Shown in pieces: positions 38,773 to 47,527 of a DNA stretch of 64,000 bases. Source of the stretch: Chloroflexota bacterium (lineage in GTDB: Bacteria > Chloroflexota > Anaerolineae > B4-G1 > SLSP01); NCBI GenBank assembly GCA_019873725.1, contig JAIOAS010000001.1:40257-104256 (forward strand). Direction: 5' to 3'. Under the pieces are notes generated by a model that was not told the DNA's origin, did not search any database, and saw nothing but the letters and a program-made list of their open reading frames with translations. Each line of letters starts with the position of its first letter. The stretch's first letter is position 1. The position numbers and the translations under genes were made by a program.

Positions 38773-39108
38773 TTATTGGAATAGCTTTTCCACCAGTTCT
38801 GCTGCTTTGGTGATTGCGACGACTAAGCCACTCGCCGCCGCTACACCTTCGATGGCGGTCCTGGCAGTGGTCAGGTAATCCCCGATTTTCTTCTTGTCCG
38901 GCGCCGGTTTTTCCGCTTCAAGGACGGCCTTATCCAGGTTGTAGCGGGCTTCCACGGCCGGTTCGCCGGTCACGGCTTGTGCCTCGACGGCCTGCTGCAA
39001 TCCACCCTGGAGCTTCCTGAGTTCGCCCAACAGCCCGGCGACGTCGTCCACGGCTCCAAAATTGTATTGGTACGTAACCGTTTGCCCGCGTTGATCGAAA
39101 ATCGTCAT
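38773..39108 (-). CDS. small protein with an N-terminal Q/N/G-rich motif (BASS-like) and a helical C-terminus
   Basis: MTIFDQRGQTVTYQYNFGAVDDVAG shares the (I/V)(Y/F)DQRxQxV..QxN motif with the N-termini of both NACHT-FGE proteins and the C-terminus of the 47045..47527 product. Confidence 0.45.
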   Translation of the reverse strand: MTIFDQRGQTVTYQYNFGAVDDVAGLLGELRKLQGGLQQAVEAQAVTGEPAVEARYNLDKAVLEAEKPAPDKKKIGDYLTTARTAIEGVAAASGLVVAITKAAELVEKLFQ

Positions 39109-39167
39109 TGTTTCCTCCTTTCAGTATCCTGGCTGCGCTTTCCATAGCGCGCTTCTGTCAAACCGTC

Positions 39168-39317
39168 AAAAAATCGAAAAACGCGACGCGCTTCGCGCGG
39201 ATGGGACCTTCGGCCTGCGGCGGTCAGGCGTTGGGCAAACATCCGCGCTCTTCCAGGTTATCCCAAAGGTCCAAAGGCCAAAGGGCCAAATTACAAAGCG
39301 GGCGCTGCGCGCGATGG
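39168..39317 (-). other. conserved ~150-nt 3' element downstream of VR1, ending in a GC hairpin plus U-tract (terminator)
   Basis: Near-identical to 44044-44193 downstream of VR2. Minus-strand end reads CGCGCGAAGCGCGUCGCGUUUUUCGAUUUUUU. Confidence 0.6.
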
Positions 39318-44193: not shown

Positions 44194-47052
44194 GGAGACG
44201 ACCACCCGAAAACCGAAGTTCCAGTTCCCGTAGTACGGGAGGTTCCAGTTGCGACAGGCGCAGCGGGCGTTGTAGCGATTGAAGTGGAACGCGCCACCCC
44301 GCAACACACGGGCGATCCCATCTCCCGCTTCCAAGTCCTCCCGCTTATCACCTACTCGGTATGGATATTTGAAATCTGCCTTGTTCCAACCCTTACCCCA
44401 CAAACTCCGTGTCCACTCCCACACGTTGCCCACCATATCCAGACAGCCAAACGGCGACACGCCTTCCGGGAAAATCCCCACTGGTGTTGTGTCCCCTACG
44501 CCCAACTCGGCTGAATTGCAATATCCCTCTTTCCAGGTATCTCCCCACGGATATTCGCGTTTATCCACTGCACCCCGTGCCGCCTTTTCCCACTCCGCTT
44601 CACTGGGAAGATGCACGATGCAAGAAGCAGGAAGAAGAGACACTTCTTCAAAACCCCCGTCGCGCCGCACCCGTATCTTGCATCCTGCCTCTTGCATCTT
44701 TTCGGTCAGCCAGCGACAATAAGCTATTGCGTCGTGCCAGGTCACGTTCACCACCGGATGACTTTCCAGTCCGCGCGGAACTTTGCCGTTCTCCCAATGG
44801 TCTGGCGCTTCGTACTGACGCGCTTCTACAAAGAGTCGGTACTGCGTGTTTGTGACGGGAGCTTTGGCGATCCAGTAACGCTCAAGATGGACTCTGTGCA
44901 CAGGCTTTTCGTTATCGCCGCCTTTCTCACTCCCCATCCAGAACTCTCCTGCTGGAATCTCCACCCACTCCGGCTCGCCATACGGCATAGTCCAGTAACC
45001 TGCCCCGGCGCGTGCTAAAGCTTCCATCGCCGCGCCGCGTTGTTCTACCCAAGCTCTCGTCCCTAGCTTGCCTGCCAAACGGCTCCAGGCCGGGCGGGGT
45101 TTTTCCAAATCCCGGCGCAACTGGCGCTGTACCTCGGCTTCCAGTTCACCCTCCACCCGGCTACTGCCCACATCCCGTAGCATCTCTGCCGCCAGGATCA
45201 GGTTGTGGTAGGGCATCGGCTGGCGCTTGCACCCGGCAATCTCCCGCACCAGGCGCGTCGTCCGCTCACGGCTCTGTGTGCTCAAATAACCAGCTTGCAG
45301 CAAAATCGCCTCGCGCCACCAGGGTTCCCCACAGCGCGCCAGAGTATAGGCCACGTAATCATCCCGCGCCGCCATTCCAAGCGCCGCCAGATACTCCTGA
45401 AAGGTCAGGTGGCTAAAAGCATACACACCTTCGCCACGCGCTACGAGCAGTCCGGTGCGTTCTTCGACGACGTGGAGAAAACGATCCACGGCCTGAGAAG
45501 CCTGGCGCCACTCCAATCCTAGTTCGTGGAAGTATTCCCCCAGCAGGCGGCGCAGGTCATCAGCCGCCATTTCCTTCTGTTGTGCTTCGTGCATCGTTAA
45601 CGCAATACGCTGCAACAACAGCTTTTTGTCACCTGCGTCAAACGGGCGGTCGGTCAGAATAGGCGTTTCTTGCACGCCGCGCGCTTCGTCCCACTTGCCG
45701 AGCAATACATCTATCGCTTCAGCATAGAGTTCAGCCCGGCGATCGGGTAACTTTACCCGGTCCCGATGCACCAGGGCTATCACGGTCAGCAGCAGTGGAT
45801 TGAGCGCCAGTTCACGCACCCGCGCGTTGGTTTGGATCGCGGTGAGTAATTGCTGCGTCTGCGCCTCGGCGCGTGTCATCGCACTCTCGCCGGGTCCCAT
45901 TTCGCCCACGGCTACCGCCAAATGCCAGTTGCGCAAGAATTGCGCGATGTCCGCGTCGGTGAAGTCGCGCACGGTGGTCACGGTGTAATCGCCGCCCAGG
46001 CGCGCCGGGCCAGTGTACCCCACGATCCGGCTGGTGACGATGAATCGGCACGTTGGGTAGGCCGTGGTGATAGCTTCTACCAGGCGCGCCACCCGTCTGC
46101 GTAAGTCGGGGTCCGCCACTTCATCCAGGCCGTCGAGCAGCACTACAGCTTTGCCGGATTCCAGATAGGGGTCAAAGAAATCCCCAGGCAGATGCACACG
46201 CTCTCCGGCAAGCATTTGGCGCAGGTATTCGACCAGCAAGCCGCACCCTTCAGTCCCTTCCTCGGCAGGACAATGCGTTTTGATATACGCCGCCAATCGG
46301 CGTAAAGGGATGAGCACCGGCAACAAGCCGCTTTCGGCAAGCCCCAGGCGCGTGGCGAGCAGGTTGTCGCCTTCGGCCATCGCGCGGGCGTAGAGCAGTG
46401 TCAGGTAGCGCAGCAGTGTGGTCTTGCCGCTGCCAGGATCGCCCAGCACGACCAGGTGCAGGTGTGCATCCAGCGCCTCGTTCACGCTGACCGTGACGGT
46501 CTCGGTGTGCGATTGATCGGCGACCGCAAACCCTTCGCGCAAGCCCAAGTCCAGCCGACGAGTAGCAAACTCGCCCGGCGCGTGGCGCATTTCCTCGGCC
46601 AGCCATTCTTCCTCGGCGCTGACCACGCGTTGGCGGGTGGCACGCAACGTCACGTAGATTTGCTCAAGTTCGATGCTCACCAGCTTGCCGCCAGAGCGAA
46701 TGCCCTGTAGGGCCAGGTAGCGGTTTTGAGCGATCAGATGTCGCAGGTAGCGCGCCAGGGCTGAGGCCGGGTCTACGGCGGGCGTTTCCACTGGAGGCTC
46801 GCCCACAATGACTCTGGCCCCTTCACCGGCAATAATGATGTGTCCACCGATGTTGGTTTGTTCTTTCACCTGCTGTTGCTGTTGATCGAAGACCACGCGT
46901 GCCGGTTGTGCTTGCTCTAGCGCTGCTATCTGCGCCTGCATAGGAGCCAACATCTGCGCGATCATCTCTGGCCTCAGACCTGGTGTTGCTTCCAGTTGGC
47001 GGCGCGTGGCTTCAAGGGTTTGGCGTAAGGCTTGTGGCGTCAGCTCACTCAT
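44167..47052 (-). CDS. NACHT-family STAND NTPase with C-terminal FGE-sulfatase domain; DGR target 2 (paralog of 39291..42041)
   Basis: P-loop HLVVLGDPGSGKTTLLRYL. FGE-sulfatase C-terminus. N-terminal Q-rich motif VVFDQQQQQVKEQTNIGG. Start set at MSELTPQ (ATGAGTGA overlap with the stop of the upstream 160-aa gene). Confidence 0.8.
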   Translation of the reverse strand: MSELTPQALRQTLEATRRQLEATPGLRPEMIAQMLAPMQAQIAALEQAQPARVVFDQQQQQVKEQTNIGGHIIIAGEGARVIVGEPPVETPAVDPASALARYLRHLIAQNRYLALQGIRSGGKLVSIELEQIYVTLRATRQRVVSAEEEWLAEEMRHAPGEFATRRLDLGLREGFAVADQSHTETVTVSVNEALDAHLHLVVLGDPGSGKTTLLRYLTLLYARAMAEGDNLLATRLGLAESGLLPVLIPLRRLAAYIKTHCPAEEGTEGCGLLVEYLRQMLAGERVHLPGDFFDPYLESGKAVVLLDGLDEVADPDLRRRVARLVEAITTAYPTCRFIVTSRIVGYTGPARLGGDYTVTTVRDFTDADIAQFLRNWHLAVAVGEMGPGESAMTRAEAQTQQLLTAIQTNARVRELALNPLLLTVIALVHRDRVKLPDRRAELYAEAIDVLLGKWDEARGVQETPILTDRPFDAGDKKLLLQRIALTMHEAQQKEMAADDLRRLLGEYFHELGLEWRQASQAVDRFLHVVEERTGLLVARGEGVYAFSHLTFQEYLAALGMAARDDYVAYTLARCGEPWWREAILLQAGYLSTQSRERTTRLVREIAGCKRQPMPYHNLILAAEMLRDVGSSRVEGELEAEVQRQLRRDLEKPRPAWSRLAGKLGTRAWVEQRGAAMEALARAGAGYWTMPYGEPEWVEIPAGEFWMGSEKGGDNEKPVHRVHLERYWIAKAPVTNTQYRLFVEARQYEAPDHWENGKVPRGLESHPVVNVTWHDAIAYCRWLTEKMQEAGCKIRVRRDGGFEEVSLLPASCIVHLPSEAEWEKAARGAVDKREYPWGDTWKEGYCNSAELGVGDTTPVGIFPEGVSPFGCLDMVGNVWEWTRSLWGKGWNKADFKYPYRVGDKREDLEAGDGIARVLRGGAFHFNRYNARCACRNWNLPYYGNWNFGFRVVVSPPREAPAL
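44194..44314 (-). other. DGR variable region VR2 (3' end of the NACHT-FGE gene 44167..47052)
   Basis: Aligned to TR. Differences occur only at TR adenines (coding strand). The VR2 peptide AFHFNRYNARCACRNWNLPYYGNWNFGFRVV compares with VR1 AFFDDRIYARCAFRFRYYPLNWFRLIGFRVV. Confidence 0.85.
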
Positions 47053-47527
47053 CGCGCCCTCGCTCTTTCCCGGCAGTGCGATAACTTCCGGCCACGTTGA
47101 TCTGCGTCCCCACCACCTGCTGCCCGCGCTGGTCATAGATGATTGTGGTCGCGGGCGGCTGGACGGGCGGCGCAGCGCCGGGCGCTGCCGCCGCGGGCCG
47201 TACATTCGAGTGTACCACAGCGGCAACTTCCTCCGCTAACGCCGCCAGTTGCTCCCGGCAAGCATCGCCAAGTGGCGTGTTCTCGGCCAGGACGCGCAGC
47301 AGCAAGACCAGGGCGTTGTCGCCGTTCGGGTTTGCGCGTGTGCTCAAGGCGTCGATGACCGCCCGTACCCGTTCCACGCGGTTGCCTGCTTCGGGGAGCA
47401 GGTCGCGCCACGCGCTCAAGCGGGCATCGACAAAGAGAGGGCGCAGCGTACGGTCGCTGTCGAAGGGCCCGCAGCGCAAAAGCGCCGCCTGCACACGTCC
47501 GTAGAGGTCTCCGGGAATACCATCCAT
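47045..47527 (-). CDS. Bell/EAD-like helical domain protein with C-terminal Q/N-rich amyloid-signalling-like motif
   Basis: N-terminal ~90 aa align with the STAND N-terminus (aa ~230-320 of 55050..58745) and the C-terminus of 54433..54978 (shared segment GDNALVLLLRVLAE). C-terminal IIYDQRGQQVVGTQINVAGSYRTAG. Stop overlaps the start of the NACHT-FGE gene. Confidence 0.55.
   Translation of the reverse strand: MDGIPGDLYGRVQAALLRCGPFDSDRTLRPLFVDARLSAWRDLLPEAGNRVERVRAVIDALSTRANPNGDNALVLLLRVLAENTPLGDACREQLAALAEEVAAVVHSNVRPAAAAPGAAPPVQPPATTIIYDQRGQQVVGTQINVAGSYRTAGKERGRDE

Follow-up and report, generated by a model that had tools for sequence, protein, structure and literature searches.

A candidate amyloid-signalling motif shared by hypermutating NACHT receptors, a Death-like adaptor and a four-helix-bundle protein in a Chloroflexota bacterium

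Introduction

In bacterial amyloid signalling sequence (BASS) systems, a short motif is common to a small protein, at its C-terminus, and to the N-terminal part of the adjacent, collinear NOD-like receptor (NLR). The published motifs are rich in Q, N, G, V and I, poor in K, P and L, and have β propensity. Their partners are mainly Bell proteins (~120-140 amino acids (aa), with an N-terminal hydrophobic helix and a five-helix bundle), and rarely TIR, CHAT, hydrolase or cyclase proteins. One published pair, AEB69174.1/AEB69175.1 of Methanothrix soehngenii (Dyrka et al. 2020), was detected by pairwise alignment. Its Bell-side protein AEB69174.1 carries RTAFDQRGQTVHGSQTNIAGNVNRP and was matched by 'bass_02:all_24' (a BASS2 sub-cluster), the NLR AEB69175.1 begins with MPDNKSRFDQRGQKVIGQQINVAGDATLP and is listed as 'class_not_assigned', outside BASS1-10, and the text says that the pair 'resembles BASS3'. 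The NLR-side peptide AEB69175.1_5_29 gave cross-β bands in attenuated total reflection Fourier-transform infrared (ATR-FTIR) spectra and bound Congo red in vitro. Here we describe a candidate motif of this kind in a 64,000-nucleotide (nt) stretch of DNA from a Chloroflexota bacterium (GCA_019873725.1, JAIOAS010000001.1, positions 40,257-104,256, forward strand; hereafter the window), where it occurs on two small proteins of 160 and 111 aa and on two NACHT-FGE NLRs that are targets of a diversity-generating retroelement (DGR).

STAND-FGS sensors with DGRs and effector-associated domain (EAD) adaptors have been described (Kaur et al. 2021), and clade-5D DGRs usually have two NACHT/C-type-lectin (CLec) targets, the N-terminal extensions of which are uncharacterised (Doré et al. 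2024). Under the 'EAD principle', a locus contains multiple copies of one adaptor module, borne by NTPase cores as well as by effector or adaptor proteins (PMC7159879, PMC8195603). The systems of Kaur et al. (2020, 2021) and Doré et al. (2024) are like the window in that two NACHT-FGE targets flank a reverse transcriptase (RT) and Avd. They further share with the locus described here an adaptor module that is found both at the N-terminus of the NTPase and on small proteins of its own, as well as bDLD1, EAD7, EAD9, iSTAND, vWA-MoxR and CHAT components. However, the coupler in the window lies outside the 12 described EADs and appears to be a BASS-type β motif instead. A link between DGR/EAD systems and amyloid motifs is absent from both Kaur et al. 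and Doré et al., and in the searchable literature we came across no paper in which a Death-like adaptor or DGR-diversified NLRs bear a BASS-type motif.

Results

The region 38773-47527 of the window is a single minus-strand gene array, as judged from the open reading frame (ORF) list and a Pfam scan, with the 5'-3' order 160-aa adaptor, NACHT-FGE2, RT, Avd, template repeat (TR), NACHT-FGE1 and 111-aa protein (Table 1). An earlier note, made from the sequence of this DNA, had reported a motif in four places of this array, and we located all four as it described. The core expression [IVLFY][YFIVL]DQ[RQKE].Q has no match in any of the six frames of the 64 kb outside these four places, and the six-frame translation contains the longer form [IV][YF]DQ[RQ]xQ…Q.N[IV].G four times and no more. 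All four copies are in terminal regions of proteins from this one operon. Paralogy of the two NACHT-FGE genes, which have repeats in common, could be taken to mean that the similarity is functionless, arising from coincidental low complexity or as a by-product of recent NLR duplication. However, 300 dinucleotide-preserving shuffles gave a mean of 0.027 core matches and a maximum of one, so that none reached even two matches against the four observed, the motif is also present on two unrelated small proteins, and it is conserved from Anaerolineae to Streptomyces and an archaeon. The recurrence data effectively refute a coincidental origin, and we regard its probability as negligible.

The composition of the four cores is Q 22%, T 14%, V 12%, G 11%, I 9.5%, N 5% and K 1.4%, with neither P nor L. 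The motif had been called Q/N/G-rich; Q and G are indeed abundant, but with N at only 5%, and T and V richer, it is better described as Q/T/V/G-rich and not strongly N-rich. This composition follows the BASS bias, in which Q, N, G, V and I are enriched and K, P and L are depleted. The motif of the 160-aa protein is identical at 13/19 positions to the M. soehngenii NLR peptide (KSRFDQRGQKVIGQQINVAGDATLP), and the NACHT-FGE1 motif is identical at 13/19 positions to the M. soehngenii Bell-side copy. A hidden Markov model (HMM) made from three published external sequences alone retrieved 3/4 window copies with E<=3e-4. In the window, as in the loci L001 and L024 of other assemblies, the motif is common to a small-protein C-terminus and the N-terminal part of the adjacent collinear NLR. 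The earlier note had described the gene of the 160-aa protein, which bears the motif at its C-terminus, as overlapping the gene of an NLR that bears it at the N-terminus, and the stop codon of the 160-aa gene and the start codon of NACHT-FGE2 do lie in an 8-nt overlap, ATGAGTGA. These comparisons support its proposal of a BASS-type NLR-associated motif, which would belong to the 'FDQRGQ…Q.N.AG' type first seen in the M. soehngenii pair. The (I/V)-Q-(I/V/L)-G tetrad of RHIM, BASS3 and PP is absent from the window cores, which read TQINVAG, QTNIGG, TQTNIAG and YQYNFGA and have only a loose Q-x-N-x-x-G resemblance to RHIM-type tetrads. Pfam EAD models gave no match to the first 101 residues of either NLR even at E<=1, indicating that the motif is not a described EAD.

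The 160-aa protein, which the earlier note had taken to be Bell-like, is a bacterial Death-like domain 1 (bDLD1) adaptor: Pfam assigns bDLD1 above threshold (E=2.6e-12), so it is not Bell. Its AlphaFold2 (AF2) model has six helices at residues 6-109 followed by a disordered tail, and its polar N-terminus, MDGIPGDLYGRVQ…, lacks the N-terminal hydrophobic helix of Bell; a Bell identity was rejected on these grounds, and the protein is set apart from Bell by description. In the AF2 models of both small proteins, the motif is in a low-pLDDT tail adjoining a well-folded helical domain, and this predicted arrangement is the usual layout of prion-forming domains. Homologues of the 160-aa protein are found in Anaerolineae metagenome-assembled genomes and in metagenomes, and fall into several classes. 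One comprises ~153-aa proteins with bDLD1 and the same C-terminal motif (TIFNQQGQQVGTQINVAGNYY), a second comprises ~245-aa proteins with bDLD1, the motif, a ITIIGDGNVVGNGN element and EAD7, and a third comprises bDLD1+EAD9 proteins such as P0041. The C-terminal motif is kept in ~20 clusters of these homologues, and many orthologues have N in place of its D and Q in place of its R (FNQQGQ).

The recurrence of the motif in homologous gene pairs, on which the earlier note had made its proposal depend, is established. L001/L022, from another assembly, have the arrangement in full synteny: a bDLD1+motif gene overlaps a NACHT-FGE gene by the same 8 nt, and RT, Avd and a second NACHT-FGE follow; the motif is kept in both NLRs, as TTFDQRNQMVQKQINVARD and TVYNQCMQTVTTQTNVAGD. 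L024 has a third bDLD1+motif/NLR pair, with AVFAQQEQTVTTQLNVAH on its NLR side. At other loci, the contents of this slot differ. L003, L006 and L033 have a bDLD1+motif+EAD7 adaptor, and the adjoining NLR starts with a zinc ribbon and EAD7 and has no motif; in L006 and L033, a 116-aa motif protein comes after the NLR. In L031 (3995-5109), a bDLD1 protein has another, BASS2-like 'GGIHF' motif (GGQIGAIGDNAKIEGGIHFG) at its end, and the next gene, encoding a STAND NTPase, starts with the matching SQAGIIGDNAYVEGGIHFY, indicating that Death-like adaptors pair with more than one BASS type. In L025 (4001-6910), bDLD1 is fused directly to NACHT-FGE in a single protein of 969 aa, and this 'all-in-one' protein is the fused counterpart of the split adaptor/NLR pair of the window. 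Between bDLD1 and the NLR, the place of this motif can be taken by a different BASS-like motif, by a helical EAD or by direct fusion. Such a pattern is expected of a modular homotypic coupler, and the motif seems to behave as a swappable one. Overall, the motif ranges over Anaerolineae, cyanobacteria, Methylococcales, Terriglobia, Desulfobacteraceae, Chloroflexia, Streptomyces and an archaeon.

The 111-aa protein is a member of an unnamed, multi-phylum family whose proteins consist of an N-terminal motif and a four-helix bundle. We collected 87 homologue clusters, typically of 116 aa, with an almost invariant N-terminus, M-x-I-F-D-Q-R-G-Q-x-V-T-Y-Q-Y-N-A-A-G-D-I-N-F-G-A-V; the window copy has lost the 'NAAGDI' segment. 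The stretch FDQRGQxVTYQYNAAGD resembles a compressed YD-repeat hairpin. The AF2 model (pLDDT 83) has four helices at residues 20-109 and draws the motif as a low-confidence hairpin. The structural neighbours of the bundle are merely generic, no Pfam, NCBIfam or PADLOC model matches the family, and we found no description of the 116-aa family in the searchable literature. In our genome scan, its members come from Anaerolineae, Nostocaceae, Calothrix, another cyanobacterium, Methylococcales, Terriglobia, Desulfobacteraceae, Chloroflexia and Streptomyces. A related motif starts the next gene, or in L008 a gene ~2 kb downstream past an inserted transposase gene, for 10 of 28 aligned family sequences (the window copy and 9/27 others) and at 6 of 11 loci examined. 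In L014 this motif-bearing neighbour is an NB-ARC-TPR NLR, and in L008 it is a large STAND-TPR protein; three cyanobacterial loci have small TPR proteins, L018 has an F420H2-quinone-reductase-like protein and Streptomyces has a membrane protein. In L017, the family member comes after a TIR-NACHT-FGE DGR target and its RT. The cyanobacterial loci L012, L013 and L019 (~10001-11700) share a conserved set of three genes, for a 116-aa motif protein, then a ~170-aa motif+TPR protein and then an uncharacterised ~255-aa protein with apparent hydrophobic segments, the L013 copy of which has no Pfam match; their fetched flanks contain no NLR. The four-helix-bundle family may be a second motif-bearing output.

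This family also bears on whether the motif is amyloid-like. An alternative is that it acts as an EAD-like homotypic adaptor of a non-amyloid kind, forming a short β-hairpin that binds by stoichiometric β-sheet augmentation with no templated polymerisation. The motif occupies the position of EAD7 or EAD9 in paralogous adaptors and NLRs, and its near-invariance across phyla in the 116-aa family would be expected of a defined fold. The low-confidence hairpin of the AF2 model agrees with such a fold, as do the sub-threshold RHS_repeat matches in 15/28 family members (alignment A2) and a weak YD_repeat_2x match at residues 3-19 of one member. However, these matches are far under the curated thresholds, a near-identical peptide formed cross-β, Congo-red-positive aggregates in vitro, and the composition and length of the motif agree with BASS and HET-s rung statistics. 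We consider the hairpin explanation unlikely, though by no means far-fetched. Membership of the RHS/YD repeats themselves was rejected, because only single sub-threshold matches were obtained (best E 0.0088 for RHS_repeat; 12.7 bits for YD_repeat_2x against a cutoff of 15.8).

Both NLRs have a helical leader, the motif region, NACHT and an FGE/CLec domain that holds the variable repeat (VR). They are genuine DGR targets, as the earlier note had stated: RT and bAvd genes are present, the RT is in the same position in L001, the VRs lie in CLec/FGE-fold C-termini, and every mismatch to the TR (18/18 in VR1 and 14/14 in VR2) is at a TR adenine. An AGGAGG site precedes the ATG of NACHT-FGE1, and the 111-aa gene has a strong Shine-Dalgarno sequence. 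A 300-nt direct repeat (39167-39466 and 44043-44342, 87% identical) covers each VR and extends ~125 nt beyond the NLR stop; it is a conserved post-VR element and possibly the DGR target-recognition (initiation of mutagenic homology/hairpin) region. Tandem repeats are found between the NACHT-FGE2 stop and the RT start (43980-44054; 8/16/24-nt units) and between the RT stop and the avd start (42873-42917; 14/21-nt units).

Table 1. Features of the motif-bearing operon and of the upstream gene cluster, with positions in the window
Feature	Position	Strand	Description
329-aa protein	61825-62814	-	C-terminal EAD9; Pfam EAD9
EAD9+iSTAND protein	60786-61925	-	Pfam iSTAND and EAD9
MoxR-like AAA protein	59840-61078	-	Pfam AAA/AAA_5
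vWA protein	58752-59864	-	Pfam VWA_CoxE
bDLD1+NB-ARC+TPR NLR, 1231 aa	55050..58745	-	local bDLD1 HMM E=4e-19 at residues 240-326; Pfam NB-ARC, TPR
EAD9+bDLD1 adaptor, 181 aa	54433..54978	-	N-terminal EAD9 (Pfam E=3e-12), C-terminal bDLD1 (Pfam E=8e-11)
EAD9+CHAT caspase-like peptidase, 507 aa	52846..54369	-	Pfam CHAT E=1.4e-34, EAD9 E=2e-14
Trypco2 protein	52446-52829	-	Pfam
160-aa adaptor gene	47045..47527	-	bDLD1 at residues 3-102, Pro/Ala linker, C-terminal motif
Motif, 160-aa protein	47081-47149	-	residues 127-149, TTIIYDQRGQQVVGTQINVAGSY; 11 residues short of the C-terminus
NACHT-FGE2 gene, 961 aa	44167..47052	-	ATG at 47052; Pfam NACHT and FGE-sulfatase
Motif region, NACHT-FGE2	46798-46902	-	residues 51-85, behind helical leader
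VR2, 3' end of NACHT-FGE2	44194..44314	-	121-nt TR match, 14/14 mismatches at TR adenines
DGR RT, 351 aa	42921..43976	-	Pfam RVT_1 E=1e-14
bAvd DGR accessory protein, 119 aa	42459..42818	-	Pfam bAvd E=2e-21
DGR TR	42301..42421	-	121 nt, three-copy repeat family D2, A-rich (30 A)
NACHT-FGE1 gene, 915 aa	39291..42038	-	ATG at 42038; Pfam NACHT and FGE-sulfatase
Motif region, NACHT-FGE1	41814-41927	-	residues 38-75, motif and second GD.NVVG element
VR1, 3' end of NACHT-FGE1	39318..39438	-	18/18 mismatches to TR at TR adenines
111-aa protein gene	38773..39108	-	N-terminal motif and four-helix bundle
Motif, 111-aa protein	39049-39108	-	residues 1-20, at the N-terminus

With a local bDLD1 HMM, two further bDLD1 copies were found upstream of the adaptor on the same strand, in a network located 5-15 kb upstream of the DGR locus. 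The window thus contains three bDLD1 proteins (160, 181 and 1231 aa), four EAD9 proteins and four motif copies, and this repetition of bDLD1, EAD9 and the Q-rich motif follows the EAD principle. Between the 181-aa adaptor and the 160-aa protein, the bDLD1 domains have 32% identity (E=1e-15). On the basis of the EAD principle and these shared copies, we infer a relay from NACHT-FGE through the motif to the 160-aa adaptor, from its bDLD1 to the 181-aa adaptor, and from EAD9 to the CHAT peptidase. This suggests the path sensor, motif, Death-like domain, EAD9, caspase-like protease, in which the 181-aa adaptor would bridge the 160-aa adaptor and the EAD9-bearing proteins and the EAD9+CHAT peptidase would be the terminal effector. 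The vWA, MoxR-like AAA, EAD9+iSTAND and 329-aa EAD9 proteins together form a complete, iSTAND-type ternary conflict system sharing EAD9. The 1231-aa NLR would be a second kind of sensor and, with the iSTAND ternary system, would feed the same hubs.

The CHAT peptidase and Trypco2 genes nearby, the conserved D and R in the motif and its location in disordered tails could also suggest that a protease common to the four proteins (CHAT or another) recognises or cuts them at the motif, or that the motif is a degron for it, the four proteins being co-regulated substrates and not binding partners. However, the D to N and R to Q substitutions in orthologues would destroy an Asp- or Arg-specific site while keeping the polar Q/N ladder, and this disfavours a protease site. 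Furthermore, conservation extends over ~20 residues with alternating hydrophobic positions and Gly turns, and paralogues swap the motif for non-cleavable helical EADs. We judge this explanation very improbable.

The GC content is 0.53-0.58 at 52446-62814 and 0.59-0.63 in the DGR locus, and this contrast suggests a mosaic island. The DGR-NLR module is separated from the EAD9/bDLD1/CHAT module by a 1316-aa ORF (47653-51603, minus strand) with a long Q/S/G/E-rich middle, a C-terminal P-loop (GDSGSGKSN) and no Pfam match, and this ORF may belong to the same island as its neighbours. Elsewhere in the window, a 7/21-nt tandem repeat of ~11 TCCTGCC units (34047-34125) is directly downstream of a ParA/MinD-like ATPase gene.

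Discussion

The most likely function of the motif is that of a homotypic, probably amyloid-like coupling module, which connects hypermutating NLRs to a Death-like/EAD network ending in a caspase-like protease. In the mechanism that we propose, a ligand would bind the diversified CLec/FGE tip of a NACHT-FGE sensor, and the resulting oligomerisation of NACHT would cluster the N-terminal motifs. The clustered motifs would nucleate a cross-β assembly (amyloid-like and templating), which would recruit the 160-aa protein and the 111-aa four-helix-bundle protein through their own copies of the motif. The clustered bDLD1 of the 160-aa adaptor would recruit the EAD9+bDLD1 adaptor of 181 aa, which would in turn recruit the EAD9+CHAT peptidase, and activation by proximity would lead to cell suicide or growth arrest. 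We regard it as moderately probable that a BASS-type homotypic motif is the plug that couples the two sensors to their two small partners, with the relay operating in this way. What the analysis demonstrates is the identity of the motif, where it lies and that it recurs, together with every domain assignment and the signatures of DGR activity; homotypic binding, an amyloid nature of the assembly, the bDLD1-EAD9-CHAT relay and the part played by the 111-aa protein are inferred.

Several observations weigh against this proposal. The amyloid data come only from the related archaeal peptide in vitro, and the sub-threshold YD/RHS-repeat matches would also suit an ordinary β-hairpin interaction unit. 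The NACHT-FGE2 motif is divergent, being identical at 8/19 positions to the copy of the adjoining 160-aa adaptor; the external HMM did not report it for the window fragment and gave the identical sequence of L002 an E of just 9. The NLR motifs are 40-50 residues in, after a helical leader, whereas those of typical BASS NLRs are at the extreme N-terminus. In the 111-aa family, the motif is at the N-terminus, the reverse of the Bell and HET-s effectors, and no motif-bearing neighbour of the family member was found within 8-10 kb in L009, L015, L016 and L017. The bDLD1 paralogues share only 32% identity. The syntenic DGR locus of L001 has no bDLD1/EAD9/CHAT cluster next to it, so that the relay rests on domain logic.

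Nevertheless, the likeness to known systems is considerable. Among the BASS Bell/NLR pairs of Dyrka et al. (2020), the M. soehngenii pair has the 13/19 identity to the window motifs and a peptide that is amyloidogenic in vitro, and filamentous or aggregate-forming taxa are a further common feature. They differ in that the partner domain in the window is bDLD1 and not the membrane-targeting Bell, that its NLRs are NACHT-FGE DGR targets instead of NB-ARC/NACHT proteins with TPR or WD repeats, and that the NLR motif is off the extreme N-terminus and a second partner holds the motif at its own N-terminus. With fungal HET-s/NWD2 and its relatives (HELLP/PNT1, sigma, PP), the window would share the logic by which NLR oligomerisation templates a terminal motif on a separately encoded partner. 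It also shares their layout of a helical folded domain, a flexible linker and a ~21-aa, rung-sized motif; some relatives have two tandem elements. However, there is no sequence homology between them, the immediate partner in the window is an adaptor and not a pore-forming HeLo executioner, and the sensor domain is hypermutated by a retroelement, not diversified by repeat instability.

In animals, RIPK1 combines a RHIM with a Death domain (DD), FADD combines a DD with a death effector domain (DED), and caspase-8 combines a DED with a caspase domain. The window would have the same three-step homotypic relay: an adaptor with an amyloid-type motif and a Death-fold domain, a two-headed second adaptor and a caspase-family protease. 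This is an architectural analogy only and not homology. Moreover, the RHIM tetrad is absent, EAD9 is coiled-coil-like and not a DED, and CHAT is a distant relative of caspases. Taken further, the analogy would make the whole system (hypermutated NLR, amyloid-type motif, Death-fold adaptor, bDLD1+EAD9, CHAT protease) a prokaryotic counterpart of RIPK1-FADD-caspase-8, with the widespread ~116-aa family as a parallel executioner or regulator of the same amyloid hub. We offer this counterpart tentatively, as a possible but somewhat doubtful extension.

The system combines two known kinds, the BASS motifs and the Death-like/EAD adaptor networks with DGR sensors. It joins BASS amyloid signalling with the Death-like/EAD networks of 'multicellular' bacterial conflict systems, two fields that have developed side by side, by placing a candidate amyloid-type motif in the EAD slot of a Death-like adaptor. 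The 'uncharacterised N-terminal extensions' found on DGR-diversified NACHT/CLec sensors would also have a definite function. It also defines a new small protein family with an N-terminal motif in multiple phyla. Two sensors and two adaptors, together with a CHAT protease and a four-helix-bundle protein, make a compact set that could be reconstituted. If the prokaryotic counterpart of RIPK1-FADD-caspase-8 is real, the combination of cross-β and Death-fold polymerisation in one pathway predates animals.

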